Assembly: GCA_965211905.1 (NCBI GenBank)
Contig: CBDBTX010000002.1
Coordinates: forward strand, 820,248 to 884,247
Direction: 5' to 3'
Origin: Longimicrobiales bacterium
GTDB lineage: Bacteria > Gemmatimonadota > Gemmatimonadetes > Longimicrobiales > Gaopeijiaceae
Length of the DNA: 64,000 nt
Shown here: piece after piece, positions 3,733 through 60,527 of the stretch
Numbering within the stretch: the stretch's first letter is position 1
How the letters are laid out: each line of letters begins with the position of its first letter
Notes under the pieces: generated by a model
Databases searched by the model: none
What the model was told of the DNA's origin: nothing
The model's input: the letters and a program-made list of their open reading frames with translations, nothing else
Translations under genes and position numbers: made by a program

Positions 3733-3777
3733 GTCCCATCCAAACATGGCCATGTCCCGGGTCATTCCCGCGGGACC
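3733..3777. repeat. 45-nt intergenic repeat, copy 1 (REP-like)
   Basis: 38/45 identical to 14003..14047 by manual alignment. It contains the palindrome TCCCGCGGGA and lies just 3' of a minus-strand stop codon. Confidence 0.7.
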
Positions 3778-3780
3778 CCC

Positions 3781-39056: not shown

Positions 39057-40961
<1,905 letters not shown>

Positions 40962-40966
40962 CCCTC

Positions 40967-42500: not shown

Positions 42501-43841
42501 ATGAGCGAGCGTTCGAGAGTTCCGATGTCCATGCGAGTTGCCTGGCCTGCGTGGGCAGTGCTGCTGACATGTCTGTCGGCGTGCGGGCCCACGGGCATCG
42601 ATCCGGACGCCGACCTGGTGATCCACGGCGCCCGCCTCTGGGACGGGACCGGGGCGCCGATGAGCGAACCCATGGTCGTGCAGATCGCCGCCGGCCGGAT
42701 TCTGTCCACGGAACCCTTGTCGGCAGGCACCGATGTCGCGGAGCTGGCGGCGGCGGCCGGCGTCGCGGCGGTCGACGCGAGCGGGTTGTACATCATCCCC
42801 GGCCTGATCAACGCCCACGGACATGTGGGCGGCACCTGGAGCGTGGAGAGGGCCGGCACCTACGCCGAGTTTGCGGAGATGGAGCTGGCCCGCTACTCCC
42901 GCTTCGGGGTCACGAGCGTCAACAGCCTGGGAGGGGACCGCGAGCCTTCCTTCGCCCTGCGTGATGCGAGTTGGGGCGACGAGGGCCCGGCGCATGCACG
43001 GGTCCTGGTCGCGGGGCCGGTGGTGACGGGGACGACCCCGGAGGAGCTGACCCTGACGGTCGACGCCGTCGCCAGCACGGGTCCGGACTGGATCAAGATC
43101 CGCGTCGACGACAACCTCGGCACCTCCACCAAGATGGACCCCGCGTCGTACCGGGCCGTGATCGACAGGGCGCGCGCGCACGGCCTGCGCGTGGCCACGC
43201 ACCTCTTCTACCAGGAGGATGCGAAGGGCCTGCTGCGCGCCGGCACCGGGCTCGTCGCCCACAGCATCCGCGATGAAATGGTGGACGACGAGACGATCGG
43301 GCTGTTCCACGAGACCGGCGTCTGCTACGTGCCGACGCTGACGCGCGAGGTGTCCACGTTCGCCTACGGAGAGCGGCCCGGCTTCTTCGACGACCTGTTC
43401 CTCACCTCGGACGTGGACTCGGTGCAGGTGGAGGTCGTCAGCGACCCCGCGCGCCAGGCCCTGATCGCGGCGTCGGGAGCCGCCGAAGCCTATGGCCGCG
43501 CGCTCGAGATCGCGCTGGCCAATCTGGCGCGGCTCGTCGAGGCGGGCGTCCCGATCGCATTCGGCACCGATTCGGGCCCGATGGGACGCTTCCAGGGCTA
43601 CTTCGAGCACATGGAGGCCGAGCTGATGGCCGAGGCGGGACTCTCGGCAGAGCAGATCCTTCGTTCGGCGACCGCGGTGGCGGCGGATTGTCTCGGGCGG
43701 GACGACATCGGGACGCTGGAGGAGGGCCGCCGCGCGGACCTGGTCCTGCTGCGGGCCAATCCGCTGGACGATGTCCGGAATCTGCGGGAGATCGAGGGCG
43801 TGTGGATCGGCGGCGAGAGGGTCGAGGGATCGAGGAAGTAG
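42501..43841 (+). CDS. Amidohydrolase-family lipoprotein
   Basis: Lipobox LSAC. INAHGHVGG metal-binding HxH, and a C-terminal FGTDSG and ADLVLL motif. Confidence 0.8.
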   Translation: MSERSRVPMSMRVAWPAWAVLLTCLSACGPTGIDPDADLVIHGARLWDGTGAPMSEPMVVQIAAGRILSTEPLSAGTDVAELAAAAGVAAVDASGLYIIPGLINAHGHVGGTWSVERAGTYAEFAEMELARYSRFGVTSVNSLGGDREPSFALRDASWGDEGPAHARVLVAGPVVTGTTPEELTLTVDAVASTGPDWIKIRVDDNLGTSTKMDPASYRAVIDRARAHGLRVATHLFYQEDAKGLLRAGTGLVAHSIRDEMVDDETIGLFHETGVCYVPTLTREVSTFAYGERPGFFDDLFLTSDVDSVQVEVVSDPARQALIAASGAAEAYGRALEIALANLARLVEAGVPIAFGTDSGPMGRFQGYFEHMEAELMAEAGLSAEQILRSATAVAADCLGRDDIGTLEEGRRADLVLLRANPLDDVRNLREIEGVWIGGERVEGSRK

Positions 43842-44698
43842 TGTTGGGAACGGCCCGCCACGGCCAGCGGGACGGAGAGGCGCAGGCCCCTGCGGTCCTT
43901 CGGCTGCACGATCTCACCCTCCGCTTCGGCGGAGTCACCGCGCTGGCGGGCCTGTCCATGGAGGTGCGGCGCGGCGAGCTCCTCGCCCTGATCGGCCCGA
44001 ACGGAGCGGGGAAGACGAGCGTTCTGAACTGCGTGTCGGGGCTGTACCGGGCGCAGGAGGGCACGATCACGCTCACCGCGCGCGACGGCGCCGGCCACGC
44101 CATCCACCGCCTGCCGCCGCATCGGATCGCGGCGCTGGGCGTGGCGCGCACCTTCCAGAACATCGAGCTCTTCAAGCACATGACCGTGCTGGAGAACCTC
44201 ATGCTGGGCCGCCATGTGCACATGCGCGGAGGCGTGCTGAGCGGAGGTCTCTACCTGGGCCGCCAGCGCCGCCGCGAGATCGAGCACCGGCGCCATGTCG
44301 AGGAGGTCATCGACTTCATGAATCTCGAGCCGCTGCGAGGTGCCGAGGTCGGCAACCTCGCGTACGGGAACCAGCGGCTCGTGGAGATGGCCCGCGCGCT
44401 CGCTCTCGACCCCGCAATCCTCCTGCTTGACGAGCCCACCGCCGGGATGAACGCGGAAGAGAAGGAGTCGATGGCGCGCTTCATCCTCGATGTGCACGAA
44501 GAGCGCGGTATCACGGTCGTGGTGATCGACCACGACATCGACGTGATCATGGACATCTCGGACCGGGTGGTGGTCCTCGACTTCGGGCGCAGGATCGCGG
44601 AGGGGACGCCGGACGAGGTGAGGAGCGATCCCGCCGTGATCGACGCGTACCTGGGGCATGCACGCGAGGAGGGCGCGGCGGTGGGGGCCGGGACGTGA
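43841..44698 (+). CDS. livG: Branched-chain-type ABC transporter ATP-binding protein (LivG-like)
   Basis: GTG at 43841. Walker A GPNGAGKTS, LAYGNQRLVEMARAL signature, Walker B LLLDEPTAGMN, and a LivG-type C-terminal motif. Confidence 0.85.
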   Translation: MLGTARHGQRDGEAQAPAVLRLHDLTLRFGGVTALAGLSMEVRRGELLALIGPNGAGKTSVLNCVSGLYRAQEGTITLTARDGAGHAIHRLPPHRIAALGVARTFQNIELFKHMTVLENLMLGRHVHMRGGVLSGGLYLGRQRRREIEHRRHVEEVIDFMNLEPLRGAEVGNLAYGNQRLVEMARALALDPAILLLDEPTAGMNAEEKESMARFILDVHEERGITVVVIDHDIDVIMDISDRVVVLDFGRRIAEGTPDEVRSDPAVIDAYLGHAREEGAAVGAGT

Positions 44699-44732
44699 GC
44701 AGCCGGCCGGAGCCGACCACGGGAGCCGGGGC

Positions 44733-46664
44733 GTGAGTGCCGGGCACGAGGCCGCGCCCGGCGCCCGCCACCCGGCGGCCACCCTGCCGGGCCTGCTCGC
44801 CCGGCGGGCAGCGGACACCCCGGACAGCGTCGCCCTCCGGGAGAAGGAGTTCGGAATCTGGCAGGAGATGACCTGGGCCGAGTACATGGCCCGGGTACGG
44901 GTGTTTGCGCTCGGGCTGCTCGAACTCGGGATGGAGGAAGGCGACCGCATCGCAATCATCGGGGACAATCGACCCGAGTGGGTGATCGCCGAACTCGCGG
45001 CCCAGTCGATCGGAGCGCTCCCGCTGGGGCTGTACCAGGACTCGATCTCCGAAGAGCTGGCGAAGATGCTCGAGGCTGCCGACGCGCGAGTGATCGTTGC
45101 CGAGGACCAGGAGCAGGTGGACAAGGTGCTCGAAGTGCGCGACCGGGTGCCGGAGCTGCGGGTCACCGTCTACTACGACCCGCGTGGAATGTACGGCTAC
45201 GAAGCGCCCGGGCTGATGGCATTCGAGGAGGTCGAAGCCCTTGGCGCCGGTCGCGGTGAGAGATTCCCGGCAGAATTTGACCAACGACTCGCCGAAGTCC
45301 GCCCCGGCGACACCGCGCTCCTCTGCACGACCTCGGGGACGACCAGCATCCCCAAGCTCGCCATGCTCTCGCACGCCAACCTCCTCGCCATGGCGGCGCA
45401 GCTGGCCGAGGTGGACCCGATGGACCCCTGCGACGAGTTCGTCTCGTTCCTGCCGATGGCGTGGATCGGGGAGCAGATGGTCGGTGTGGCGAGCGCGCTG
45501 CTGGCCGGCTTCACGGTGAACTTCCCCGAAGAGACCGCCACCGTGCGCCAGGACATGCGCGAGATCGGCCCGGCCTTCCTGATGTCGCCGCCGCGCATCT
45601 GGGAGAACATGGTGTCGGACGTGCAGGTCATGGCCGAGGACACCACGCCGCTCAAGCGCTGGATCTACCGCTGGGCGATGAAGGCGGGCACGGTCGCCGC
45701 CGACCGACGGTCCAACGGCAAGCGCCCGGGGCTGCTCGTCCGCCTTCGCCACCGCCTCGCCGACTGGACCGTCCTCCACCCGATCCGCGATCAGCTCGGC
45801 CTCGACAGGGTGCGGCGCGCCTACACCGGCGGTGCGGCCCTCGGCCCCGACGTCTTCCGCTTCTTTCACGCCATCGGCGTCAACCTGAAGCAGCTGTACG
45901 GCCAGACCGAGGTCTCGGGGATCTCGGTGGTCCACCGTGACGGCGACATCCGCTTCCACACCGTGGGCACCCCGTTTCCGCAGACCGAGATCCGCATCTC
46001 CGACGAGGGCGAGATCCTCTGCCGCAGCCCCGCCGTCTTCCAGGGCTACTTCAGCAACCCCGAGGCGACGGCCGAGACGCTCGAGGACGGCTGGCTGCAC
46101 TCGGGCGACGCCGGCTACTTCGAGGAGGACGGCCACCTGGTCGTCATCGACCGGCTTGCCGACGTGATGAAGCTGGCCGACGGGACCGCCTTCTCGCCCC
46201 AGTTCGTCGAGAACAAGCTCAAGTTCAGCCCGTACGTCCGCGAGGCCGTGGTCTTCGGGGGCGGCGGCGCCCCGTTCGTCACCACAATGATCGCGATCGA
46301 CATGGAGAACGCGGGCCAGTGGGCCGAGCGCCACCGCATTCCGTACACCACCTTCACCGACCTTGCCCGCCGCGCCGAGGTCTACCGCCTCATTCGCAGC
46401 CATGTCGGCACCGTCAACCAGGACCTGCCCCCGGCCGCCCGCATCCGCCGCTTCCTCCTCCTCCACAAGGAGCTGCACGCCGACGACGCCGAGCTGACGC
46501 GCACGCGCAAGGTCCGCCGCCGCTACATCGCCGACCGCTTCGCCGACATTATCGCGGCGCTTCAGGGAGACGGCGATTCGGTCACCGTAGAAACCGAGAT
46601 CACCTACCAGGACGGGCGCACGGCCGAAGTGGCGCACGAACTCCGCATCGAGACGCTGGACTGA
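44733..46664 (+). CDS. AMP-dependent synthetase / long-chain acyl-CoA ligase embedded in the ABC operon
   Basis: LCTTSGTTSIPKLAML AMP-binding motif, YGQTE, and GWLHSGDAGYFEEDGHLVVIDRLAD. Confidence 0.85.
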   Translation: MSAGHEAAPGARHPAATLPGLLARRAADTPDSVALREKEFGIWQEMTWAEYMARVRVFALGLLELGMEEGDRIAIIGDNRPEWVIAELAAQSIGALPLGLYQDSISEELAKMLEAADARVIVAEDQEQVDKVLEVRDRVPELRVTVYYDPRGMYGYEAPGLMAFEEVEALGAGRGERFPAEFDQRLAEVRPGDTALLCTTSGTTSIPKLAMLSHANLLAMAAQLAEVDPMDPCDEFVSFLPMAWIGEQMVGVASALLAGFTVNFPEETATVRQDMREIGPAFLMSPPRIWENMVSDVQVMAEDTTPLKRWIYRWAMKAGTVAADRRSNGKRPGLLVRLRHRLADWTVLHPIRDQLGLDRVRRAYTGGAALGPDVFRFFHAIGVNLKQLYGQTEVSGISVVHRDGDIRFHTVGTPFPQTEIRISDEGEILCRSPAVFQGYFSNPEATAETLEDGWLHSGDAGYFEEDGHLVVIDRLADVMKLADGTAFSPQFVENKLKFSPYVREAVVFGGGGAPFVTTMIAIDMENAGQWAERHRIPYTTFTDLARRAEVYRLIRSHVGTVNQDLPPAARIRRFLLLHKELHADDAELTRTRKVRRRYIADRFADIIAALQGDGDSVTVETEITYQDGRTAEVAHELRIETLD

Positions 46665-46728
46665 GCCCATGGCAGCACCGAGCCCGCAGCGCGACCGGCG
46701 ACGCCGGGCGACACCGAGCCGCTAGCCC

Positions 46729-47601: not shown

Positions 47602-47608
47602 GCGAGTC

Positions 47609-48667
47609 ATGAGCCTCGAGTGCGGCGTCTTCCACACCCGCTACGAGTCCGATATGGGACTGCGGCCGTGGCCCATGCAGCGGATCCGGCTGGCTCTGTT
47701 CGCCGTCTTCGTGCTCGTCTTCCCGTTCGTGGCCGGCCCGTACTGGCTCGACCTGGCCAACCAGATCGCCATCGCGACCGTGGGCGCGATCGGCCTGAAC
47801 ATCCTGGTGGGCTACACCGGCCAGATCTCGCTGGGACAGGGCGCCTTCATGGCCATCGGGGCGTACACCGCGGGGCTTCTCACGCTCAACTTCGGCCTGC
47901 CGTGGGGTGTGAGCATCGCGGCGGCGTGCGTGGTGACCTCTCTGGCGGGCACCTTCTTCGGGCTGCCCTCGCTGCGGCTCAAGGGACTGTACCTCGCGAT
48001 CGCCACGCTGGCCGCGCAGGAGATCGTGGAGTGGGGGATGACCCACTGGACGGCGGTGACCGGGGGCACCGAAGCGATCATCCTCCCGGCACCGACCCTC
48101 TTCGGCGTGCGCCTCAACAGCACCTTCGCCTTCTACTGGTTCGGTGTGCTGATGGCGGCGGGCACGGCGCTCTTCGCGGCCAACCTCTTCCGCACGCGCA
48201 TGGGGCGCGCCTTCGTGGCGGTGCGCGACCAGGACATCGCGGCCAGCGTGATCGGCGTGAACCTCTTCCGCACCAAGCTGCTCGCGTTCGCCACCTCGTC
48301 GTTCTTCGTCGGCCTGGCGGGCGCGATGATCGCGTACTATCGCACCATCATCACCTGGGAGCGCTTCACGCTGGACACGAGCATCGTCTACCTGGCCATG
48401 ATCATCGTCGGTGGACTCGGCTCGATCCGCGGGTCGTTCTTCGGCGCGATGCTGATCACGCTGCTGCCGGCGCTGATCACCAACGCGGGGCGCGCTCTGC
48501 AGGACACCGCCCCGGTGGTCGCCAACCTGCTCCCGTACGCGCAACAGGCCGTCTTCGGCCTCGTAATCATCCTCTTCCTGATCTTTGAGCCCAAGGGCCT
48601 GTCAAAGCTGTGGGGCAACGTGAAGGACTATTTTCACGTGTGGCCGTTCGCGTACCGGCGGGGGTGA
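47609..48667 (+). CDS. livM: Branched-chain-type ABC permease (LivM-like)
   Basis: 352 aa and multi-TM. GYTGQISLGQGAFMAIGAY motif. Confidence 0.88.
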   Translation: MSLECGVFHTRYESDMGLRPWPMQRIRLALFAVFVLVFPFVAGPYWLDLANQIAIATVGAIGLNILVGYTGQISLGQGAFMAIGAYTAGLLTLNFGLPWGVSIAAACVVTSLAGTFFGLPSLRLKGLYLAIATLAAQEIVEWGMTHWTAVTGGTEAIILPAPTLFGVRLNSTFAFYWFGVLMAAGTALFAANLFRTRMGRAFVAVRDQDIAASVIGVNLFRTKLLAFATSSFFVGLAGAMIAYYRTIITWERFTLDTSIVYLAMIIVGGLGSIRGSFFGAMLITLLPALITNAGRALQDTAPVVANLLPYAQQAVFGLVIILFLIFEPKGLSKLWGNVKDYFHVWPFAYRRG

Positions 48668-49109
48668 ACGCCGAGCGCCCGTGAACGGTGCTGGCGCGGG
48701 AGCGCTGTCTGCTTGACACGACTCCAGCGGAAATTCATACTTTACGGCCACGCGCATCTGCGCAATCAAGTGGGCTTATCCGCGGGGAACCTTCCCGCCT
48801 CCCATGACCGCTCCACTCGGAGCGAGGACAATCGTTCCGGCTCGGTCATGTGGGGAGAATCCGATCCATGTCCGGGCATTGCCCACACCCTCAAGAGGGC
48901 CCCGCTGTGGCGGGGCACATGGATTCTTGATCCGGTCAGTCACTGGGTCTGGGATCGCACTGCAGGACGTCTCGACGAATCCAGGCGACAATGGTGCCAG
49001 GGCGCTGGACGGATTGTTGGCAGGTGCGGTCATCTCGTTGGGGGAGGTGAGGCGATAGAACCGCCGATCGGCGAAGAACCCACTTCCAGAAGAAAGGAAC
49101 GCGAGTCCG

Positions 49110-49406
49110 ATGAAATACATTCGTCCATGGAGAACGGTGCTCATCCCCACTCTCACCCTCGTCGTCGCCGCGTGCGGCGACCTTACCGGAGAGTCCGGGT
49201 GGCGCTGCGACGTGACCCTCACGATGGACAACCGGACCGGGTCCGGCTCAGGGACGGGTTCCACGCAACAGGAGGCGCTTGACCAGGCGCGTTCTGCGGC
49301 CTGCGCCCAACTCGGGCTCACCGGAGAGGCGCTTAGCCGCTGCCAGGCTGGGCAGAATCCGGGTGCGTTGTCGTGGTCGATGGACATCGATTGCGAGACG
49401 ACGTAG
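49110..49406 (+). CDS. Small Cys-containing lipoprotein, hypothetical
   Basis: AAGGAA RBS, signal peptide with lipobox VVAAC, 98 aa. Confidence 0.55.
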   Translation: MKYIRPWRTVLIPTLTLVVAACGDLTGESGWRCDVTLTMDNRTGSGSGTGSTQQEALDQARSAACAQLGLTGEALSRCQAGQNPGALSWSMDIDCETT

Positions 49407-49420
49407 CGGCAGGCGCTAAC

Positions 49421-50827
49421 ATGGCCTCGGCCGGCCCTTGCGGCGTTGCTGTTCCCGACCTTCCGCCGCGCTTCGCGCACAGAGCTTGCCGGCCCGTGGC
49501 GCTTGCGGCCTTGTTCCTCGTGCTCCTGGCGCTCGCCTGCGAGAGCCCCGTGGCCCCGGCGGCCTGCGGCTCGATCCCGCCGGTAACGATCAACGTCGGC
49601 GGGACCGTGATGGTTGCCGCCTGCTTCAACGACCTGAATGGCGATGTGCTGAGCTACACGGCCGCGTCGTCGAACCCTTCGGTGGCGACCGCATCGATCG
49701 CCGGCACCTCGATCACGGTCAGGGGCGTTTCTCCGGGCAACGTCACGGTCACGGTTACGGCCAGCGACCCCGAAGGGCTCCAGGGCCAGCAGAGTTTCGC
49801 GGTCATGGTCCCGAACCGCCCACCGCGGCCCCGCGGCACGATGCCGAGCGTCACGGTAGGGGTGGGCCGAACCGCCACGATTGATGCGTCCCAGTACTTC
49901 ACCGAGCCGGACGGCGAGGTGCTGACCTACTTGGCGACCCCCTCGGATGCCGCAGTGGCCCGTGTGAGTACAGAGGGTTCGATGATCAGGGTCGCGGCGC
50001 AGACCAAGGGCAGTTCCAGCGTCACCGTTACGGCGAGCGATCCGGGCGGACTTTCGGCCACCCAGTCCTTCCGGTTTACGGCACCCAACCGGCCGCCGGC
50101 ACCAGTGGGAACGATCGGGGCCCGGAAGATCGAGTCGGGTCAGTCGGCCACTCTTGACGTCGCCGCTTCGTTCAGCGATCCGGACGACGATCCGCTCACC
50201 TACACCGCGGTCTCCTCGGTCCCCACGGTCGCCCGCACAATGGTGTCGGGCAGCACGGTGACTATCACCGCTGCCGGGCCGGGAGCGGCCACCATCACCA
50301 TCACGGCCAGAGACGATGAGCAAGCGGCCGCAACCCAACAGGTGAGCGTGACCGTCGTGTCGCCTGCGCCGGACTTGGCGTTCACGGACGTGTCGCCGGC
50401 TTCCGCCACGCTGGCGCCGGGCGATTCGGTAGCGTTCTCGTTCCGTGTCCGCAATAGAGGCACCGTCGCGTCCGGCGCGACCACGATCCGGGCGATGAGG
50501 TCACCGAACCCCATCATCAGCGCCCGGGACACGGAACTCAGGTCGTGGTCATTCTCGTCCCTGGCCCCATCCCGGGAACGCACGTTCGAGATTACGATCT
50601 CGGCCGACCCGAAGAGCGCGCCGGGAACGATTTACATCGGCATGTGCGTTGATCCGGTGGCGGACGAGTTCGACGCCCGCAACAACTGTTCGGAGGGTGC
50701 TCGGCTGACGATCGCCGGGGCGTCCGGTGCGGACGAGTCGGCCCACAGCGGGCCCGGCGTCCAGGTCCGGGCCGTATCGCCCGCGCCCTCGAGCCGTCCG
50801 CTGCGGCCGCAAGGAAGCGCGAGTTGA
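49421..50827 (+). CDS. Surface lipoprotein with three tandem Ig-like (Big/cadherin-like) domains and a C-terminal CARDB-like domain
   Basis: Lipobox LLALAC. Three ~95-aa repeats (D..L.Y.A.SS.P.VA...V.G...T+.....G.A.VTVTA.DP.GL.A) precede PDLAFTDVSPASATLAPGDSVAFSFRVRNRG, which is CARDB-like. Confidence 0.7.
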   Translation: MASAGPCGVAVPDLPPRFAHRACRPVALAALFLVLLALACESPVAPAACGSIPPVTINVGGTVMVAACFNDLNGDVLSYTAASSNPSVATASIAGTSITVRGVSPGNVTVTVTASDPEGLQGQQSFAVMVPNRPPRPRGTMPSVTVGVGRTATIDASQYFTEPDGEVLTYLATPSDAAVARVSTEGSMIRVAAQTKGSSSVTVTASDPGGLSATQSFRFTAPNRPPAPVGTIGARKIESGQSATLDVAASFSDPDDDPLTYTAVSSVPTVARTMVSGSTVTITAAGPGAATITITARDDEQAAATQQVSVTVVSPAPDLAFTDVSPASATLAPGDSVAFSFRVRNRGTVASGATTIRAMRSPNPIISARDTELRSWSFSSLAPSRERTFEITISADPKSAPGTIYIGMCVDPVADEFDARNNCSEGARLTIAGASGADESAHSGPGVQVRAVSPAPSSRPLRPQGSAS

Positions 50828-50841
50828 GATTGGAAAAGCAA

Positions 50842-53800
50842 ATGAGAAGCCAATGCCGTCTGCGCAGCCGAACAGCCACGGTTGCGCGAACACACGCGCC
50901 CGGGCAAGCCGCCGTGCTGACGATTGCGCTCCTTGCAGCGTGTGGCGACGAGTCTGTGGTCGATCCCCCGGCGGCCCTCGTGTCCGCTTCCGAATGGAGC
51001 GCGGCGGCGGCGGCGACGAGCGACCGGGACATCCTCATTGCGCTCTATGAGGCGACGGACGGGCCGAACTGGGTCAACAACGAGAACTGGCTGAGCAACG
51101 CGCCGCTGGGAGAGTGGTACGGGGTCGACACCGACGCTTCCGGACGGGTCGTCCAGCTTGATCTCTCCGGTACGTGGGATGACGAGGCGAGACGCGAGGT
51201 GGCGCATGGGCTTCGGGGTGCAATTCCTTCCGAGATCGGCAAGCTCATAAGGCTGGAGAGGTTGGAACTCGGAATGAACAGCCTCACCGGCCCAATCCCG
51301 GTCGAACTCGGCGAACTTGCCAGCCTGGAGCGGCTGATTCTCAACTCAAACGACCTTTCAGGCCCGATTCCGGCCGAACTCGGTGCCGCCACCAGTCTGA
51401 CAACCCTGGATCTCGGCTACAATAGTCTCTCCGGTCCGATCCCATCCGAGATCGGCGACCTGCCCAACTTGCGGCGGTTGATGCTCATCTACAACGACCT
51501 CACCGGCCCCATTCCACCGGAACTCGGGAACCTCGCCAGCCTGTCAGCGCTGTGGCTTCGCGACAATGAGCTGTCGGGCATGGTCCCGCCGGAACTTGGA
51601 GGCATGGTCGGCCTGACTGAACTCAGTCTCCAAAACAACGACCTCTCGGGTCCGATCCCGCAGAGTCTCGTGCAACTCAACGGGCTTCGCCAGTTCTTCA
51701 TTGCGGGAAATGAAAGTCTCTGCGTACCGGGAACTTCTTCCTTCGTCGCGTGGCTGCAAGGGGTCCAACACAATGGAGCATCCTGTAACGCGGGCGATGT
51801 CGCCGTGCTAGAGACGCTGTACGAGTTGACGGACGGTGCGGATTGGACCGAATCCGGCGGCTGGCTCGGGGCCGGTGCGGTGGAGGAGTGGTTCGGCGTC
51901 ACGGCAGACTCCCTTGGGCGCGTGACGGCGCTTGATCTAACCCGCAACGGACTGGTTGGAAAGCTTCCAGCGAGGTTGGGAGACCTGAGCCAAATGAACG
52001 TACTGCGGATCGGTGGCAATGCGTTGATGGGTCGGCTCCCCGCGTTGCTGGCGCAAGTTGCCTTGGAGGTACTTGACTACAGTGGCACCGAGCTATGCAC
52101 TCCCGCCGACGAAGCATTCCGAGAATGGCTGAAGGCCATCGTGTCGCACGAGGGCACTGGCGTCGAGTGCGCTCCCCTGTCGGACCGTGAGATCCTCGAG
52201 ATCTTGTACGAAACAACCGGTGGGAGAGACTGGGAGGAATCACACAACTGGCTCACCGAAGCTCCGCTCGGAGAGTGGTATGGGGTGGAGACGGATGCGG
52301 ACGGGATGGTCGTTTCCCTGGATCTCCGGCGGAACGGGCTGGAGGGGCCGATCCCTCCAGCGTTGGGTGCGTTGACCGAACTGGAAACCCTGATCCTCTT
52401 CAGAAACCAGCTGGCCGGGCCGATCCCTCCTGCGTTGGGCGCGCTGGCCGGGGCCAAGCTCATCGTTCTCGCGGCAAACGAACTCTCGGGGCCGATCCCG
52501 CCGGAGTTGGCCGGGTTGGCCAGCGTGGAAGAACTCTTCCTGAACTCGAACCGGTTGACGTCCGTCCCCGCGGAGTTGGGCGAACTGGGCAACCTTCAGG
52601 CGTTGAGTCTCAACTTCAACCGGTTGAACTCCATCCCCGCGCAACTCGGTGGCCTGGCCGAACTGGAATACCTGGGGCTCCGGTCCAACGAACTGACGTC
52701 CGTCCCGCCGGAGTTGGGCGAATTGGGCAACCTGGTAGAGCTGGATCTCGATGACAATCGGCTGACCGCGCTTCCCGTTGGACCTGACAGCTACCCAAGC
52801 CTGAGGCTCCTGTTTCTCTCGTCCAACGAATTCACGTCTTTCCCGTGGGAGTTGAGCGAACTCGACCGCCTTTGGTTGCTCATCCTCGAGAGGAACCGGC
52901 TGACCGACGTTCCGCCCGGATCGGGCGGCTTCGCAGATCTGCGCGTCCTGGATCTCTCGTCCAACGAGCTGACGTCCTTCCCCCGGGAGCTGGGCACGCT
53001 GGGCAATCTCAGGCAGCTGGAACTCGACGGAAACCGACTGACCGACATTCCGCCTGGACTCCGAGAGATGGCCGGTGGCGAACGGCCTCCCCGCTATGCC
53101 GACGAGTCGCCGCCCTTCGCCCGGAGTCTGACCGAGCCGGGCCGTCCATGGCGGCTGGATCGTGCCGGAGACCGCTTGACGTCGATTGGCAAGAGGCTGA
53201 GCACGCTGGACGCTTCACGGACCCACGGAGAATTCGACAGGAGCCGGTCGACGAACGGAGGTTCGCGCGTTGGCGGCTTTGCAAGCATCGAGGTTCTGGA
53301 TCTCTCGTCCAACCAGCTGAGCGGCTCGCTGCCGGCGGGGCTGGTCGAGCTCACGGGTCTTGCGAGTCTGGGCCTGGCCGACAACGTGGGGCTAACCGGC
53401 GCCCTGCCTTTGGACTTGACGGCGATGGAGGGCCTCGAGGATCTACACACGACCGGGACGGAGCTCTGTGCGCCGGCGGACCCGACGTTTCTGGATTGGC
53501 TCGGCGGCGTGACGCGGCAGCGGGTCGCGCTTTGCGACCGTGACGCCGATGCAGCCGCCTATCTCACGCAGTCTGTCCAGTCCCGCGAGTTCCCGGTGCC
53601 GCTGGTCGCGGGCAAGCCGGCTCTGTTGCGGGTATTCGTCACGGCGAAGCGGGCAACCGACGTGGCCCTGCCCCCCGTCCGCGCCACCTTCTACCAGGAC
53701 GGGGCCGTGGCGTACGAACTGGACATCCCGACGAACCAGGACCCCATTCCGGCAGCGATCGATGAGAGTTCGCTGTCGAAGTCGGTGAATGCGGAGATCC

Positions 53801-55026
53801 CGGGGTTGGTCATCCAGCCGGGGCTGGAGGTCGTGATCGAACCGGATCCGGAGGGCATGCTGGACCCCGCACTGGGCGTGGCCAGGCGCATCCCCGCGAC
53901 GGGCCGGATGGCGGTCGACGTCCGGGCGATGCCGGTGTTCGAGGTGACGCTCGTGCCCTTCATCTGGGAGGAGAACCCGGATTCCTCCATTGTGGACATC
54001 ACCGCGGCCATGGCCGCCGACCCGGGCGGGCACGAACTGTTTGAACGGACGCACCTGCTGCTGCCGGTCGCGGAGCTGGACGTCACGGCGCACCCGGCAG
54101 TCGCTTCGCCGACGAACAACGGCTTCGAAATCCTGGCGCTTACGGAGATGATCCGGGTCGCCGAGGGCGGGCGCGGCCATTACCTGGGTGTAATGGCTGG
54201 AACCACGGGACCGGGAGGTCTCCTCGGCGTGGCGAACGGCATCGGAAGCTGGTCGAGCTTCTCGGTCCTCGATTCCGAAACAATCGCGCATGAATTCGGC
54301 CACAACCGCAATCTGTATCACGCGCCGTGCGGCGGAGCCGGCGGACCGGACCGGTACTACCCCTACGGCCGCGGCAGCATCGGTGCCTGGGGCTACGACT
54401 TCCGAACAGGCGAACTCGTGCCGCCCGGCCGACCGGACTTCATGTCCTACTGCGAGCCGACATGGACCAGCGACTACCAGTTCACGAACGCGGTGCGATA
54501 CCGCCTGGAGACAGAGACCAACTCGATCCTGGTCGCGGCTGCGGGCGCCCGTGCTGCGGCTTCCTCCAGCCGGACGCTTCTCGTATGGGGCGGTCTGGAT
54601 GGCGACGGCGCCCCGTACCTCAGGCCGGCTTTCTTCATCGGCGCCCCGCCGTACCGGCCATCGGCCGATGGCGCGTGGTCGCTCACGGGGCGGGATCCCG
54701 GCGGCGCGGAACTCTTCGCAGTGTCCTTCGCAATGTCGGAGTTCACGGACACGGAAGACGACCACGCCGGGTTCACCTTCGGCCTGCCGGTGACGTGGAG
54801 CGGGGAGCTGGCGAGCATGACGCTGCAAGGCCCGGGAGGCTCTGCCAGCCTCGATCGCGACAGCCAGGATCCCCTCACGATCCTGCGCGAGGCCGCGACG
54901 GGCCGAATCCGCGGCATCGTCGACGACCCGGCGACGATGGCGGTCCGCTCAGCTTCCGCTACGGCGGGGGGCCAGGAGTTCGAGGCCCTCTTCAGCCGCG
55001 GAATTCCCGATCCGCCGGAATCGTGA
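50842..55026 (+). CDS. Giant lipoprotein: plant-type LRR arrays plus a C-terminal M66-like zinc metalloprotease domain
   Basis: Lipobox ALLAAC. Several blocks of 24-aa L.G.IP.ELG.L..L..L.L..N.LSG units, each preceded by a DR.IL.ALY.AT.G..W cap. The C-terminus has HEFGHNRNLYH (HExxHxxxxxH) in an M66-like context. Confidence 0.8.
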   Translation: MRSQCRLRSRTATVARTHAPGQAAVLTIALLAACGDESVVDPPAALVSASEWSAAAAATSDRDILIALYEATDGPNWVNNENWLSNAPLGEWYGVDTDASGRVVQLDLSGTWDDEARREVAHGLRGAIPSEIGKLIRLERLELGMNSLTGPIPVELGELASLERLILNSNDLSGPIPAELGAATSLTTLDLGYNSLSGPIPSEIGDLPNLRRLMLIYNDLTGPIPPELGNLASLSALWLRDNELSGMVPPELGGMVGLTELSLQNNDLSGPIPQSLVQLNGLRQFFIAGNESLCVPGTSSFVAWLQGVQHNGASCNAGDVAVLETLYELTDGADWTESGGWLGAGAVEEWFGVTADSLGRVTALDLTRNGLVGKLPARLGDLSQMNVLRIGGNALMGRLPALLAQVALEVLDYSGTELCTPADEAFREWLKAIVSHEGTGVECAPLSDREILEILYETTGGRDWEESHNWLTEAPLGEWYGVETDADGMVVSLDLRRNGLEGPIPPALGALTELETLILFRNQLAGPIPPALGALAGAKLIVLAANELSGPIPPELAGLASVEELFLNSNRLTSVPAELGELGNLQALSLNFNRLNSIPAQLGGLAELEYLGLRSNELTSVPPELGELGNLVELDLDDNRLTALPVGPDSYPSLRLLFLSSNEFTSFPWELSELDRLWLLILERNRLTDVPPGSGGFADLRVLDLSSNELTSFPRELGTLGNLRQLELDGNRLTDIPPGLREMAGGERPPRYADESPPFARSLTEPGRPWRLDRAGDRLTSIGKRLSTLDASRTHGEFDRSRSTNGGSRVGGFASIEVLDLSSNQLSGSLPAGLVELTGLASLGLADNVGLTGALPLDLTAMEGLEDLHTTGTELCAPADPTFLDWLGGVTRQRVALCDRDADAAAYLTQSVQSREFPVPLVAGKPALLRVFVTAKRATDVALPPVRATFYQDGAVAYELDIPTNQDPIPAAIDESSLSKSVNAEIPGLVIQPGLEVVIEPDPEGMLDPALGVARRIPATGRMAVDVRAMPVFEVTLVPFIWEENPDSSIVDITAAMAADPGGHELFERTHLLLPVAELDVTAHPAVASPTNNGFEILALTEMIRVAEGGRGHYLGVMAGTTGPGGLLGVANGIGSWSSFSVLDSETIAHEFGHNRNLYHAPCGGAGGPDRYYPYGRGSIGAWGYDFRTGELVPPGRPDFMSYCEPTWTSDYQFTNAVRYRLETETNSILVAAAGARAAASSSRTLLVWGGLDGDGAPYLRPAFFIGAPPYRPSADGAWSLTGRDPGGAELFAVSFAMSEFTDTEDDHAGFTFGLPVTWSGELASMTLQGPGGSASLDRDSQDPLTILREAATGRIRGIVDDPATMAVRSASATAGGQEFEALFSRGIPDPPES

Positions 55027-55153
55027 TTGCAGGTAGTTGATCTCGGTGGCCAATCCGCGCTCTTCGCTGCCCAGCTCCCGCTGGATGGCGGTTGCGAGGT
55101 GATTTCGTTTTCGTCCCACTCGGGGAGTCCAGCGTCCTGATATGTTGGCTTAG

Positions 55154-55988
55154 GTCGCCTCGGCCACCGGTCGGTTCAAGCGCTGGATCTACCACTGGGC
55201 GATGAAGGTGGGAACGGCCGCCGCCGACCGCCGATCCAACGGCAAGCCCCCCGGCCCGCTCGCCCGCCTCCGCCGCCGCCTCGCCGACTGGACCGTCTTT
55301 CACCCGATCCGGGATCAACTGGGCCTCAACCAGGTGCGGCGCGCCTACACCGGTGGCGCGGCCCTCGGCCCCGATGTCTTCCGGTTCTTTCATGCCATCG
55401 GCGTCAACCTGAAGCAGCTGTACGGGCAGACCGAGGTGTCGGGCATCTCGGTGGTCCACCGCGACGGCGACATCCGCTTCCATACCGTGGGCACCCCGTT
55501 TCCGCAGACCGAGATCCGCATCTCCGGCGACGGCGAGATCCTCTGCCGCAGCCCCGCCGTCTTCCAGGGCTACTTCCGCAACCCCAAGGCGACGGCCGAG
55601 ACGCACCACCATGATCGCGATCGACATGGAGAACGCGGGACAGTGGGCCGAGCGCCACCGCATTCCGTACACCACCTTCACGGACCTGGCGCGCCGCGCC
55701 GAGGTGTACCGCCTCGTTCGCAGCCATGTCGGCACCGTCAACCAGGATCTCCCCAAGGCCGCCCGCATCCGCCGCTTCCTCCTCCTCCACAAGGAGCTGC
55801 ACGCCGACGACGCGGAGCTCACGCGTACGCGAAAGGTGCGCCGCCGCTACATCGCCGACCGCTTCGCCGACATTATCGCGGCGCTTCAGGGAGACGGCGA
55901 TTCGGTCACCGTAGAAACCGAGATCACCTACCAGGACGGGCGCACGGCCGAAGTGGCGCACGAACTCCGCATCGAGACGCTGGACTGA
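55154..55988 (+). pseudogene. Decayed second copy of the 3' part of the acyl-CoA synthetase gene
   Basis: Collinear with 45652..46664, but with an in-frame TAG at 55151 upstream and a 200-nt internal deletion (junction 55604/55605) that shifts the frame. Confidence 0.85.
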
Positions 55989-55989
55989 G

Positions 55990-56550
55990 ATGGATATTTT
56001 CCTCCAGCTCACGGTGTCCGGCCTCAGCACCGGCATGATCTACTCGTTCCTGCCCGCGGGCGATGTCGTCCTCGGCCCGGTGATCCTGTCGGCCGACCGC
56101 CTCCTGTCGATTCCGATCGCGCTGGTGGTGCTGGCCGCGCTGTGGCTCTTCTTCCGGCATACGCGCGACGGGATCGCGATGCGGGCCATCGCCGACGACC
56201 AGCAGGCCGCGCTGAGCATGGGGATCAGCATCCCGCGCGTCTTCGGGATCGCCTGGGGGCTCGCGGCGGCGTCCGCGGCGATCGGCGGCATCATGCTGGC
56301 GGGCATCGTGGGGGTGAGCCCCAACGTGGCGTCGATCGGGCTGCGGGTCTTTCCGGTGGTGATCCTGGGCGGACTCGACTCGATCCGCGGGGCCGTGATC
56401 GGGGGCGCGATCATCGGCCTGCTCGAGGTCTACACCGGCGGCTATGTCGGCCACGGGCTGAGCCTGGTGGTGCCGTACGTGGTGCTCATCCTGGTGCTGA
56501 TGGTCCGTCCCTACGGGCTCTTCGGCAGGGAGATCATCGAAAGGGTATGA
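55990..56550 (+). pseudogene. livH copy with a 312-nt in-frame internal deletion
   Basis: 186 aa against 290 aa. Residues equivalent to 19-122 of the intact copy are missing (junction 56043/56044). The remainder is highly similar. Confidence 0.75.
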
Positions 56551-56614
56551 GCGCGTCGCGGCGGGGGAGCGGGCGGGACCGGCCCAGGCGCGCGGCGCGA
56601 AAGGGGAGCGCACG

Positions 56615-57393
56615 ATGAGCCTCGAGTGCGGCGTCTTCCATACCCGCTGGCATGTGTGATGACGTCCGTGGCGGGCACCTTCTTCGGCCTTCCCTCGCTG
56701 CGCCTGAAGGGGCTGTACCTCGCGATCGCCACGCTTGCCGCGCAGGAGATCGTGGAGTGGGGGATGACCCACTGGACGGCGGTAACCGGCGGCACCGAGG
56801 CGATCGTCCTGCCGGCACCCACCCTCTTCGGCGTCCGGCTCAACAGCGGCTTCAACTTCTACTGGTTCGGCGTGCTGATGGCCGCCGGCACGGCGCTCTT
56901 CGCCGCCAACCTCTTCCGCACGCGCATGGGACGCGCCTTCGTGGCCGTCCGCGACCAGGACATCGCGGCCAGCGTGATCGGCGTGAACCTCTTCCGCACC
57001 AAGCTGCTCGCCTTCGCCACCTCGTCGTTCTTCGTCGGCCTGGCGGGCGCGATGATCGCCTACTACCGCACCATCATCACCTGGGAGCGCTTCACGCTGG
57101 AGACGAGCATCGTCTACCTGGCCATGATCATCGTGGGCGGACTGGGCTCGATCCGCGGCTCGTTCTTCGGCGCGCTGCTGATCACGCTGCTGCCGGCGCT
57201 CATCGCCAACGCGGGGCGGGCCGTGCAGGAGACGGCGCCGGCGGTGGCCGGACTCCTTCCCTACGCGCAGCAGGCGGTCTTCGGCCTCGTGATCATCCTC
57301 TTTCTGATCTTCGAGCCCAAGGGCCTGTCCAAGCTGTGGGGCAACGTGAAGGACTACTTCCACGTGTGGCCGTTTGCGTATCGGCGGGGGTGA
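56615..57393 (+). pseudogene. livM copy with a 280-nt frameshifting internal deletion
   Basis: The original ATG at 56615 reads MSLECGVFHTRWHV and then stops. The conserved C-terminal ~240 aa continues in the frame of ORF 56626..57393. Confidence 0.8.
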
Positions 57394-57428
57394 CCACGCG
57401 GGGCTCGAACAATCCGAAATGTAAAGTA

Positions 57429-57449
57429 AACATTACATAATGTAATGTT
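57429..57449. repeat. AT-rich perfect palindrome AACATTACAT-A-ATGTAATGTT
   Basis: Read directly from the sequence. It lies between the livM' remnant and the stop of the convergent ATPase gene. Confidence 0.8.
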
Positions 57450-57460: not shown

Positions 57461-58744
57461 CTATGGCATGGGCAGCGGCAGGGCCCAGAAGTGCGTGGGC
57501 CCCCGATGGAACGGCAGCACCTCGGATCCAGTGTACAAGAGCACACCATGCTCGAAGGCATCTCCCGCGAGTTCGGCCAAGGCGGCCAGACCGTTGAAGT
57601 CCTCGCGGCGGACGGTGGTCGAGGCCTTGGTCTCGACGCCGACGATGCGCCCGTCGGGCCGTTCCAGCACGATGTCGACCTCGCGCTTCCGCTTGTCCCG
57701 AAAGTGGTAGAGCCCAACCTCTTCATCCGCCCACTCGGCGTGCTTGGCACATTCCATGAAGACCAGCGTCTCAAGAAGCGCGCCATAGTGCGGGCTCAGG
57801 AGAAGCCGGGTCTCGTTGCGCAGGCCGAGAAGGTGGGACGCGAGGCCGGTATCGACGAAGTGCAGCTTCGGCATGCTGACGGCCAGACGCCGGGCGAGAT
57901 TCTTCCGATATGAGGGCACCCGGCGGATCAGGAACATCAGTTCGAGGATCTCCGCGTAGCTCTTGGCGAGCTTGTCGTTGAGTTCGAGGTCGTTGGCGAG
58001 GCTGGCGTACTTGAGCAGGTTGCCGCTCCGGCCGGCGAGGTACGGCGCCAGCGCCCGCAGCCTCGAGTGGTAGTCGCCGCGGGCGGTGTAGAGTGTCTCG
58101 AAGTCCTTGAAGAATCGCCCCTCGGTGTAGGATCTGAACCAGATGGTGCGCGCGCGGCGGCCCATGCGCTGAACCTCGGGATAGCCGCCGAGCAGGATCA
58201 GCCGCGCAATCTCCTCACGGGTTGGGGCGTGCCGCCCCGGACCCATCGACGAGAAGTCTCCCTCGAGCAGGTAGTCGATCAGATTGTCGCGTCGGTCTCG
58301 AAGCTCGGCGGTCGACAGGGGCAGGAGTTCGAGGCGGGCCATGTGCCCGGGCAGGGCCTCCTGGGCCCGCGCTGAACGGAAGATGTCGGCGGAGCCGGTC
58401 AGGAGGAAAAGCCCCTTGCGCGGCGCTCCGGACGGCCCGCCGGCGGGGGCTACACTGGCGTGCCGGTCCGACGCCTCCTTGATGGCGGGAACCAGCTCGG
58501 GCACCTGTTGGAATTCGTCGAGGACGACCGGCCGGCCGCCGAATGACCTGACAAGGCCGTAGGGATCGGACGCGGCCGCGGCCTGCACGGCGGGGTCGTC
58601 CAGGGTCAGATAACGCAAACCCACCTCGGCGGCTACACCGCGGACCAGGGTGGTCTTGCCCGACTGCCTGGGACCCGTGAGGTAGACGATCCGGAACTCG
58701 GCGAGCATGTCACGCACGAGTGGATAGAGGTGTCTGGCGTACAT
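57461..58744 (-). CDS. AAA+ ATPase with a DUF4143 domain
   Basis: Walker A GPRQSGKTT and Walker B-like VVLDEFQ. C-terminal KLHFVDTGLASHLL and EVDIVLE...VGVETKAS motifs. Confidence 0.85.
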   Translation of the reverse strand: MYARHLYPLVRDMLAEFRIVYLTGPRQSGKTTLVRGVAAEVGLRYLTLDDPAVQAAAASDPYGLVRSFGGRPVVLDEFQQVPELVPAIKEASDRHASVAPAGGPSGAPRKGLFLLTGSADIFRSARAQEALPGHMARLELLPLSTAELRDRRDNLIDYLLEGDFSSMGPGRHAPTREEIARLILLGGYPEVQRMGRRARTIWFRSYTEGRFFKDFETLYTARGDYHSRLRALAPYLAGRSGNLLKYASLANDLELNDKLAKSYAEILELMFLIRRVPSYRKNLARRLAVSMPKLHFVDTGLASHLLGLRNETRLLLSPHYGALLETLVFMECAKHAEWADEEVGLYHFRDKRKREVDIVLERPDGRIVGVETKASTTVRREDFNGLAALAELAGDAFEHGVLLYTGSEVLPFHRGPTHFWALPLPMP

Positions 58745-58773
58745 CGCTTCGTCGCCGATGGGCAGACCGATCC

Positions 58774-58831
58774 TTATGACGAGAAATCCAACGTCTTATT
58801 ACGAGAAATATGATTGCTTATTACGAGAAAT
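58774..58831. promoter_or_regulatory. Three direct repeats TTAT(G/T)ACGAGAAAT at an exact 22-bp period
   Basis: The repeats lie at 58774-58787, 58796-58809 and 58818-58831, in the divergent intergenic region between the ATPase (-) and the M20 gene (+). Confidence 0.6.
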
Positions 58832-58937
58832 CAAGACCTGCGCGGGGGAAGCGCATGGCAAGCTCTTTCCGCTTCGGGCGGGCAGTCCCTATCTTCCAGA
58901 GTCCCTGATTCTCACGCTTTCCCATCCAGGTCCGTCA

Positions 58938-60527
58938 ATGGCTAACCGAACGATCACAGCGACGCTGGTCGCCCTCCTAATCACCCCCGCTGTCACGGCC
59001 GCGCAGAGCCTCGACGACGAGCAGCTCGCGCCTCTCGTGGAACGTGTGGAAGAGGGCGTGCTCGAGCGTGCCAAGCTGGCCCAGGTGATGGTCGACAAGA
59101 TCTTCTCCTTCTCCGAACTGGGGCAGCAGGAGATCGAGACGTCCGCCTATATCACGGGCATTCTGGAAGAGAACGGCTTCGACGTCGAGCGCGAAGCCGC
59201 GGGCATCCCCACGGCGTGGTTCGCGCGCTGGGGAAGCGGCAGTCCGGTGATTTCCTTCGGCTCGGACATCGACGGGATTCCGAAGGCGAACCAGAAGCCG
59301 GGCGTGGCCTACCACGACCCGCTGATCCCGGGCGCGCCCGGACACGGCGAGGGCCACAACTCGGGGCAGGCGGTGAACGTGGTCGCGGCGCTCGCGCTCA
59401 AGGAGGTCATGGAGGCCGAAGGGATCCAGGGCACGCTGGTGCTCTGGCCGGGCGTCGCCGAGGAGCAGCTGGCGTCAAAGGCGTGGTACGTGCGCGACGG
59501 CTACATGGAGGACATCGACATCACGATCTTCACCCATGTCAGCAGCAACCTGTCGGTCAACTGGGGACAGGGCGGCGGCACCGGACTCGTTTCGGTGGAG
59601 TTCACCTTCGCGGGCGAGGCGGCGCACGGCGCGGGCGCTCCCTGGCGGGGCCGCAGCGCCCTGGACGCCGTCGAGCTGATGAACGTCGCGTGGAACTTCC
59701 GCCGCGAGCACCTCAGGCCCGACCAGCGATCGCACTACGTGATCAGCGACGGGGGCGACCAGCCCAACGTGGTGCCGCCGAGCGCCTCGGTGTGGTACTT
59801 CATCCGCGAGATGGACTACGAGGACATCCAGCGCAACTTCGACACGGCCGTGCGCATCGCCGAGGGCGCGGCCATGATGACCGACACCGAGATGTCGTAC
59901 CGGATCATCGGCGCGGCGTGGCCGCGGCACTTCAACAAGGTCGTGGCCGAGACCATGTACGAGCACATCGAGGAGGTGGGGCTCCCCGAGTGGACCGAGG
60001 ACGACCACGACTTCGCCAGCGCGGTGCAGGAGTCGGTGGGAAGCGTGCCTTCGGGGATGCCGGTCGCGCTGTCGCCGCTGGGCACGCCGGGACCGCGCCG
60101 AAGCGGGGGATCGGACGACATCGGCGACATCTCGTGGAACGTGCCCACGGTCACACTGCGCTTCCCGTCGAACGTGCCGGGACTGCCGGGCCACCACTGG
60201 TCGAGCGCCATGGCGATGGCGACCCCCATCGCGCACAAGGGCGCCGTCGCGGGCGCGCGGGTGATGGCCCGCACCGCCCTGCAGCTCTTCGCGCAGCCGG
60301 AGCTCGTCGATCAGGCGTGGACCTACTTCAACGACGAGCAGAGCGTCGGCATGGAGTACGTCCCCTTCATCGGGCCCGACGATCCGCCGCCCATCGATCT
60401 CAACCGGGAGATCATGGAGGCGTTTCGTCCCCTGCTGAGACAGTATTACTATGATGAGACCCGCTTCGAGACCTATCTTGAGCAGTTGGGGATCAAGTAT
60501 CCTACGCTCACGCGGCCGATTTCGTAG
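58938..60527 (+). CDS. M20-family amidohydrolase (AbgB-like), secreted
   Basis: ATG at 58938 with a signal peptide. FSELGQQEIETS, GSDIDGIP and GHGEGHNSGQ motifs. Confidence 0.8.
   Translation: MANRTITATLVALLITPAVTAAQSLDDEQLAPLVERVEEGVLERAKLAQVMVDKIFSFSELGQQEIETSAYITGILEENGFDVEREAAGIPTAWFARWGSGSPVISFGSDIDGIPKANQKPGVAYHDPLIPGAPGHGEGHNSGQAVNVVAALALKEVMEAEGIQGTLVLWPGVAEEQLASKAWYVRDGYMEDIDITIFTHVSSNLSVNWGQGGGTGLVSVEFTFAGEAAHGAGAPWRGRSALDAVELMNVAWNFRREHLRPDQRSHYVISDGGDQPNVVPPSASVWYFIREMDYEDIQRNFDTAVRIAEGAAMMTDTEMSYRIIGAAWPRHFNKVVAETMYEHIEEVGLPEWTEDDHDFASAVQESVGSVPSGMPVALSPLGTPGPRRSGGSDDIGDISWNVPTVTLRFPSNVPGLPGHHWSSAMAMATPIAHKGAVAGARVMARTALQLFAQPELVDQAWTYFNDEQSVGMEYVPFIGPDDPPPIDLNREIMEAFRPLLRQYYYDETRFETYLEQLGIKYPTLTRPIS

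Follow-up and report, generated by a model that had tools for sequence, protein, structure and literature searches.

Why does a bacterial genome hold two collinear copies of the same operon segment a few kilobases apart, one of them intact and the other damaged? The question is raised by a window of 64,000 nucleotides (nt) from a Longimicrobiales bacterium of the Gaopeijiaceae (assembly GCA_965211905.1, contig CBDBTX010000002.1, positions 820,248 to 884,247), the whole of which was analysed and to which all unmarked positions below refer. The segment comprises the 3' part of acs, coding for an acyl-CoA synthetase-like protein, followed by the transporter genes livH and livM. Copy 1 (45652-48667) and copy 2 (55176-57393) lie in direct orientation, ~9.5 kb apart, and enclose a 6.5-kb island, termed X. 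As argued below, copy 2 is probably the remnant of the resident acs-livH-livM, displaced by foreign livH-livM genes that were integrated together with X, and its open reading frames (ORFs) are most likely non-functional.

Two Collinear Copies of One Operon Segment

The two copies were compared by self-BLASTN of the window. Six ungapped collinear blocks join copy 2 to copy 1 (Table 1), with identities of 85.2-97.1% and E-values ranging from 1e-9 to 0, which bears out the collinearity claimed in an earlier, sequence-only reading of this DNA. The size differences listed in that reading hold as well: relative to copy 1, copy 2 has 200, 63, 312, and 280 nt fewer and 57 nt more. Both ORFs that it described are present, an in-frame livH' of 186 amino acids (aa) and a livM' ORF of 255 aa opening with GTG (56626-57393). 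The whole genome (hereafter G000; 4.43 Mb, 3 contigs, 67% G+C) contains just these two copies and no third.

The missing 200, 312, and 280 nt, as well as the 5' part of acs, are present in every relative examined, and copy 2 has the truncation and frame disruption of a pseudogene. In acs', the Pfam match is limited to positions 284-384 of the 384 of the AMP-binding model (PF00501), and no single frame holds a complete adenylation domain together with the C-terminal domain. The BPD_transp_2 domain (PF02653) is incomplete in both transporter remnants, matching model positions 135-269 of 269 in livH' and 59-269 in livM'; about four N-terminal hydrophobic segments are lost from LivH' and the first three or four from LivM'. 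The livH' gene remains in frame from its native ATG. In livM', the original ATG (56615) opens a 14-codon ORF ending with a TGA that overlaps a second ATG, at 56659 (TGATG). This second ATG opens a 244-aa ORF in the native livM frame, which in copy 2 can be reached just from there or from the GTG at 56626, the latter giving the 255-aa product.

The same structure occurs in a second species. A genus-wide search revealed one further species with two copies, G063, a single-contig metagenome-assembled genome (MAG; OZ242947.1) labelled "Longimicrobiales bacterium". In its copy 2, the joint between X and acs, the 5' truncation point, the three internal junctions, and the spacers all match those of G000 to the base, and the ORFs have the same sizes; the flanking chromosomal DNA is 3-10% divergent between the two genomes. 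Both carriers are MAGs, in which a strain-variant contig might have been collapsed or chimerically joined. Base-identical junctions, in the same order, in an independent single-contig assembly of a different species make a mis-assembly very unlikely, however, and such an artefact is scarcely credible here; the two-copy structure is taken to be real. Among the species genomes, G063 is the sole further carrier of the exact junction patterns, none of which was found in the metagenome contigs, and the exact LivH' sequence was not found elsewhere. The short LivH fragments that fall into the LivH' protein cluster are N-terminal truncations, and the one viewed in context (L039) is an assembly frameshift.

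Resident and Foreign Types

In every other member of the genus with a match, the segment is present once. An M20-like gene lies directly 3' of livM in these relatives, or 1.3-1.9 kb away from it. Three intact metagenome contigs (L034, L035, and L036) display livG-acs-livH-livM followed by a DUF4143 or M20 gene, without X; in L034, it is DUF4143 that follows livM. Since the relatives have a single operon followed by M20 or DUF4143, the upstream side of copy 1 and the downstream side of copy 2 represent the native flanks, and X plus one copy of the segment would be the insertion.

Two direct, collinear copies ~9.5 kb apart could be read as an intragenomic tandem duplication of acs'-livH-livM followed by decay, as was done in the sequence-only reading. 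The copies differ by 4-15%, however, and the distribution of the differences argues against such an origin. Among the 199 differing positions, 28, 20, and 150 fall at codon positions 1, 2, and 3, respectively, and one outside ORFs; the same excess of third-position changes is seen in acs', a fragment that lacked its 5' part in copy 2 from the outset. Given this excess, the copies must have diverged as functional genes in separate lineages, and not after a duplication.

Which of the two is the resident type can be assessed by comparison with L034, the closest intact relative, whose identity is 93-97% over the upstream flank and ~93% over the downstream flank. Over livH and livM, the identity to L034 is 95.1% for copy 2 and 89.2% for copy 1, and that to L035 is 94.3% and 88.4%, respectively. 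Furthermore, a single BLAST high-scoring segment pair (HSP; 93%, L034) runs from livM' of copy 2 into the downstream flank, whereas the homology of copy 1 ends at the livM stop codon, exactly where X begins. These identities and the continuous HSP identify copy 2 as the bearer of the resident livH-livM and livH-livM of copy 1 as foreign, having arrived with X, which is foreign too. A tandem duplication is difficult to reconcile with a copy 2 livH-livM that is closer to another organism's intact operon (95%) than to copy 1 (~89-91%).

The spacers of the two copies are also of different natural types. The absent 63-nt spacer and the extra 57-nt spacer each fill precisely the gap from the stop codon of one gene to the start codon of the next. 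The acs-livH spacer is absent as well from G015, G001, G003, G018, L034, and copy 1 of G063, and a long livH-livM spacer is found in G019, G007, G021, G011, and L034. That of copy 2 aligns without gaps to those of G019, G007, and L034 (in L034 within a 605-nt block, at 93.4%). As both spacer types recur in relatives, the 63-nt loss and the 57-nt gain are natural variants and not events of copy 2. Of the four internal deletions proposed in the sequence-only reading, those of 200, 312, and 280 nt are thus real and the fourth is a spacer variant; likewise, the ~57 nt thought to have been gained between livH' and livM' are a native spacer of the resident type. Copy 2 is degraded indeed, being truncated, frameshifted, and deleted, but it did not arise by decay of a duplicated copy 1, given the divergence in separate lineages and its resident type. 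A tandem duplication is accordingly regarded as very improbable.

A Chimeric Operon and Its Possible Origin

Copy 1 itself is a chimera. Measured against L034, its sequence is of the resident type across livG and the 3' half of acs (~94%) and turns foreign at the start of livH (79-92%). Over 45652-46514, acs of copy 1 is 93.8% identical to L034, as compared with 92.2% for acs' of copy 2, and it is closer than that of copy 2 to all 8 references. The switch of type at the acs/livH boundary coincides with the longest identical run between the copies (46515-46665 = 55839-55989, 151 nt; the next longest is 62 nt), as would a crossover within identical sequence. X is flanked by the two copies as direct repeats, the second of which starts at acs nt 995, and this is the layout of an insertion-duplication.

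The proposed course of events is as follows. The operon would have received foreign DNA, donated by a different lineage within its Longimicrobiales genus and made up of acs from nt 995 onward, livH, livM, and then, behind livM, the island X. One homologous crossover would have occurred in the 151-nt identical stretch at the end of acs, the other end being the illegitimate joint between X and acs nt 995 (55175/55176). In the simplest form, a donor fragment ('acs-livH-livM-X) would have been closed into a circle and integrated by a single crossover of the Campbell type, i.e., as an insertion-duplication. Such an event would yield a working chimeric operon with resident livG-acs and foreign livH-livM (copy 1), the island X, and a promoter-less partial copy, composed of truncated acs and resident livH-livM and contiguous, as before, with the native downstream genes. 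This redundant copy would later have lost 200, 312, and 280 nt via three deletions by illegitimate recombination or end joining. The architecture, the junctions, the opposite affinities of the two livH-livM pairs, the presence of the structure in a second species, and the mosaic described below are observed directly; from these, we infer the circular intermediate and the order of events.

Another route would lead through homology-facilitated illegitimate recombination (HFIR) of a linear donor, or through a duplication-insertion between sister chromatids. Copy 2 would then be resident throughout, acs' included, and either acs-livH-livM or livH-livM of copy 1 would be foreign. The combination of one homologous and one illegitimate junction is that of HFIR (PMC3240628), acs' of copy 2 (92.2%) is about as close to L034 as are the chromosomal flanks, and Ku is encoded in G000. 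Simple replacement, however, cannot integrate a linear fragment whose illegitimate end lies upstream of the homologous one. With the 3' half of acs resident-like (93.8%) and livH-livM foreign (89.2%) in copy 1, pure HFIR also needs an extra recombination event. Moreover, a duplicated resident acs should give near-identical acs segments, but these differ by 8% (acs_a) and by ~4% (acs_b, including the identical tract), mostly at third positions. This route is considered rather unlikely, and the insertion-duplication by a single crossover is retained as the working reading.

Deletions and Style of Decay

The microhomology at the deletions was judged against resident-type alleles, and not against copy 1. 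The 200-nt deletion of acs' shows 1 nt of microhomology and the 280-nt deletion of livM' 4 nt (CGCT). That of livH' is exactly 312 nt long, with neither microhomology nor a filler base; scoring it against copy 1, as an event of 313+1, is misleading. The genome also codes for Ku. The three deletions of copy 2 appear, from their junctions, to be ordinary products of illegitimate recombination or end joining.

One clean deletion in each gene had been regarded as unusual, but the same operon is found with three different discrete deletions in an unrelated contig of 1 Mb, L038 (ENA ERZ25766663 contig_37). There, a degraded livG-acs-livH-livM at its native site (~7227-10380) has lost ~556, 860, and 294 nt, its blocks being otherwise almost gap-free. 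As this operon has decayed independently and also by discrete deletions, losing a few hundred bases at a time seems to be the usual course of decay in this lineage. The surroundings of the L038 operon harbor toxin-antitoxin modules, an ISL3 transposase, and a methyltransferase. A breakage hotspot shared with the truncation point of copy 2 was considered and rejected: the L038 breakpoint lies ~10 nt away, a distance compatible with chance.

A Mosaic Between Two Species

The similarity between G000 and G063 is far from uniform. The two genomes are at least 99.3% identical from ~47228 to ~55230, a range that takes in the 3' part of copy 1, X, and ~50 nt at the start of copy 2; outside it, the identity is 93-98% for the remainder of copy 2 and 80-99% for the flanks. 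Within X, the identity of at least 99.3% holds save for one LRR patch and a 4.1-kb indel. It is proposed that the stretch from the middle of livH of copy 1 through X was exchanged recently between the G000 and G063 lineages.

Copy 1 of G063, which lacks the 63-nt spacer, is at 47128-47227 96% identical to copy 2 of G000 and just 85% identical to copy 1 of G000. From this pattern, it too appears to have been overwritten by resident-type sequence up to ~47227.

Selection or Imported Variation

Between G000 and G063, copy 2 differs at 87 coding-derived sites, with no indels. In codons, synonymous and nonsynonymous differences number 31 and 5 in livH', and 24 and 1 in livM'. Third-position divergence is 17% in livH' and 10% in livM', like the 7-18% of the functional flanking genes, and divergence at positions 1 and 2 is 1.6% and 0.4%, respectively, against 1.1-5.5% in the flanking genes.

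These figures speak for an alternative in which livH' (186 aa) and livM' (244-255 aa) give rise to products that purifying selection maintains as new, shorter membrane proteins, for example as modulators or alternative subunits of the LIV-type transporter, the deletions being adaptive. The livH deletion is exactly in frame, divergence at positions 1 and 2 is as low as or below that of the functional flanking genes, and the TGATG overlap ending the 14-codon ORF of livM' has a geometry compatible with reinitiation. In addition, GC->AT mutations private to one genome number 1/1/11 at the three codon positions of livH' and livM' taken together (p=0.02 against a GC-weighted neutral expectation). 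In a more specific version, livH' and the 244-aa livM', translated by reinitiation after the 14-codon leader, would be expressed by read-through from the island genes and kept as shortened subunits or modulators. If true, this would explain the identical junctions and the intact frames in two species.

Several results undercut this reading, among them the mosaic of G000 and G063 described above. The tree is inconsistent along copy 2, and in the windows where G000 and G063 diverge most, one of the two sequences matches an intact allele of the L034 or L035 type at 96-97%. As these windows match intact alleles, their variation has been imported from functional genes after the deletions arose. Substitutions private to the shared stem of copy 2 number 4 in ~2150 nt and those private to one genome 22, numbers that carry little statistical power. 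A control is provided by acs', with a bias of 2/5/16 at the three codon positions (p=8e-4), indistinguishable from that of functional acs comparisons (p ~0.6). Truncated and frameshifted, acs' cannot encode an enzyme, yet it is equally third-position biased; the bias, therefore, needs no selection on the remnant. Furthermore, the hydrophobic segments missing from both products, a private F->C change in livM' of G063 at 57359, where all other compared sequences have T, and the same style of decay without any conserved product in L038 do not favor a function. Purifying selection on the truncated ORFs, a strong candidate at first, was downgraded in view of the inconsistent trees, the imports, the few private mutations, and the acs' control. 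Retention of livH' and livM' as working proteins is thus unlikely, and its version with reinitiation and read-through is judged improbable; for copy 2 as a displaced remnant, we infer a lack of function. The idea of a diversity-generating template/variable-repeat system was also discarded, the substitutions between the copies being third-position biased and not base-specific.

The scarcity of point decay in copy 2 looks explained by its youth, to which the 4 substitutions private to its stem point, and by ongoing recombination with intact resident-type alleles, which imports synonymous-biased variation. It is plausible that copy 2 alone should be patchy in this way: it lies ~5% from the local pool of intact alleles, while X has no homologues available for recombination and the foreign livH-livM of copy 1 is 10-15% away from that pool.

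Several points weigh against a displaced and decaying resident copy. A donor lineage carrying X natively 3' of livM was not found, and the Big_9 protein of the island, used as a query for a donor, has no close homologue outside G063. Were the two copies reciprocal chimeras, the right side of each should match the prediction, as it clearly does (95.1% vs. 89.2% to L034); on the left side, where acs' of copy 2 is expected to be of the donor type, the difference has the right direction but is weak (92.2% vs. 93.8% for copy 1). The whole neighbourhood is a recombination mosaic, in which later exchanges may have blurred or mimicked breakpoints, and the 151-nt tract could itself be a later gene-conversion tract. 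Finally, mutations private to one copy-2 sequence, mostly GC->AT, keep an excess at third positions once GC3 = 0.93 is taken into account (p = 0.013-0.022), the GC->AT changes numbering 2/2/15 at the three codon positions (p = 0.013 against the GC-weighted expectation), and the 2.2 kb of copy 2 show no small indels or stop codons between the two species, which leaves room for some constraint on livH' and livM'.

The Island and the Surrounding Genes

The features of the locus are collected in Table 1. Island X codes for a 189-aa ORF, a 484-aa Big_9/CARDB protein, and a 1400-aa protein with LRR and M66-like domains, as assigned by Pfam. No mobility genes are present among the Pfam matches of X in G000 and G063, all of which are to surface proteins of the Big/CARDB/PKD or LRR/M66-like kind. 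The island is bordered by the operon repeats and does not have the make-up of a mobile island borne by an integrase, a transposase, or att sites.

Table 1. Features of the acs-livH-livM locus and collinear blocks between its two copies (window positions).
Feature	Position	Strand	Evidence
livG-type ABC ATPase, ancestral upstream flank	43688..44698	plus	Pfam ABC_tran + BCA_ABC_TP_C; 93-97% to L034
acs copy 1, AMP-binding acyl-CoA synthetase-like, intact	44658..46664	plus	Pfam AMP-binding 2-384/384 + AMP-binding_C_3
151-nt tract, copy-1 side, probable homologous crossover site	46515..46665	plus	identical to 55839-55989
livH copy 1, intact, foreign (xenologous) type	46729-47601	plus	full BPD_transp_2, model 2-269
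livM copy 1, intact, foreign (xenologous) type	47609-48667	plus	full BPD_transp_2, model 3-269
Island X, inserted DNA, 6.5 kb	48668..55175	plus	Pfam; absent from relatives
Novel illegitimate joint, end of X / acs nt 995	55175..55176	plus	acs homology begins abruptly at 55176 = 45652
acs' remnant, without nt 1-994, 200-nt frameshifting deletion at 55604/55605	55176..55988	plus	
acs' ORF 1, 278 aa, out of frame past junction	55202-56038	plus	
acs' ORF 2, 125 aa, native frame	55611-55988	plus	
151-nt identical tract, copy-2 side	55839..55989	plus	
livH', 186 aa, 312-nt in-frame deletion (aa 19-122) at 56043/56044	55990..56550	plus	resident type
livH-livM spacer of copy 2, 57 nt, native resident type	56558..56614	plus	gap-free alignment to relatives
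livM' remnant, 280-nt frameshifting deletion at 56648/56649	56615..57393	plus	
DUF4143 ATPase, ancestral downstream flank	57461-58744	minus	
M20-like peptidase, ancestral downstream flank	58758-60527	plus	
Block 1 (copy 2 = copy 1)	55176-55604 = 45652-46080		91.8%, self-BLASTN
Block 2	55604-55989 = 46280-46665		95.9%, self-BLASTN
Block 3	55990-56042 = 46729-46781		90.6%, self-BLASTN
Block 4	56044-56557 = 47095-47608		85.2%, self-BLASTN
Block 5	56615-56648 = 47609-47642		97.1%, self-BLASTN
Block 6	56649-57393 = 47923-48667		91.1%, self-BLASTN

Within the 1400-aa LRR/M66-like gene, a stretch of the LRR region (52227-53726) is just 75-86% identical between G000 and G063, the island being 99.3-100% identical elsewhere. 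Each of the two genomes possesses dozens of paralogous LRR genes, and the pattern suggests gene conversion from paralogues or a diversifying exchange in the repeat array. At 48899/48927, G063 (L032 ~1900-6250) has, compared with G000, an additional 4.1 kb that code for two more Big_2/Big_9/CARDB proteins, of 401 and 898 aa. In G000, the breakpoint of this indel is spanned by the 189-aa ORF (48713-49282), which is without a Pfam match and might be what a deletion left behind.

Further features were noted in and around the operon. Upstream of the amidohydrolase gene, the stretch 40947-42390, holding an LRR gene of 717 aa, gives no megablast match of at least 150 nt between G000 and G063, while its two sides align at 91-93%; it is another variable slot for surface proteins. 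In L035 (ENA ERZ24894577 ctg521491l), a Peptidase_M78 and DUF4411 pair, with a 43-aa ORF ahead, is inserted at 1103-2900 between livG and acs, in an operon that is otherwise intact; insertions seem to recur at the livG/acs junction. Just 3' of the livM' stop codon, an AT-rich palindrome (57416-57449) is conserved between G000 and G063, with the preceding 20 nt scrambled.

Relation to Known Systems and Meaning

In Campbell-type single-crossover integration, a circular molecule carrying an internal gene fragment inserts into its chromosomal homologue and gives rise to an insertion-duplication. The present locus resembles such an event in that the insert lies between direct repeats, one of which starts abruptly at the end of the fragment (acs nt 995), and in that the crossover falls in the longest identical stretch; the expected reciprocal chimerism of the copies is only weakly apparent on the left. 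In contrast to plasmid integration, this would be a natural event between orthologous operons that have diverged by ~10%, with neither plasmid nor integrase genes and with a putative circle. HFIR is known from naturally transformable bacteria and from conjugation of E. coli (PMC3240628). Here too, foreign DNA enters by homology at one end and by an illegitimate joint at the other; unlike at this locus, HFIR of a linear fragment replaces the resident DNA and leaves no displaced partial copy downstream.

The concept of xenologous gene displacement in situ within operons is said to stem from Omelchenko et al. in 2003. Here, livH-livM would have been functionally replaced, at the same locus, by orthologues acquired horizontally from a related lineage. 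The term is also used in PMC9425974 and PMC1274311. Unlike in the usual cases, the resident genes persist as a remnant after their displacement, and their substitutes came with a cargo island of 6.5 kb. The erosion of bacterial pseudogenes by deletional bias was reportedly described by Mira, Ochman, and Moran in 2001. Similarly, redundant and promoter-less genes appear to be removed here by deletions with little or no microhomology, of which L038 offers an independent example. In contrast to usual pseudogene erosion, point decay is almost absent from copy 2, which is attributed to youth and to recombination with intact alleles rather than to selection. The locus thus joins xenologous displacement in situ, insertion-duplication of the Campbell or HFIR type, and deletional erosion, none of which is new in kind.

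What the locus offers is a clear view, in nature, of orthologues of a related lineage taking the place of operon genes in situ, at a stage when the resident genes can still be seen. It suggests that a cargo island without mobility genes can enter a conserved operon by homologous recombination and one illegitimate joint. Once there, the island lies between two conserved stretches of the operon, usable as homology arms for exchange between species. Lastly, the locus carries a warning, for which acs' serves as the control: in a highly recombining population, a dead gene can appear constrained, with a synonymous bias and no indels, via imported variation.

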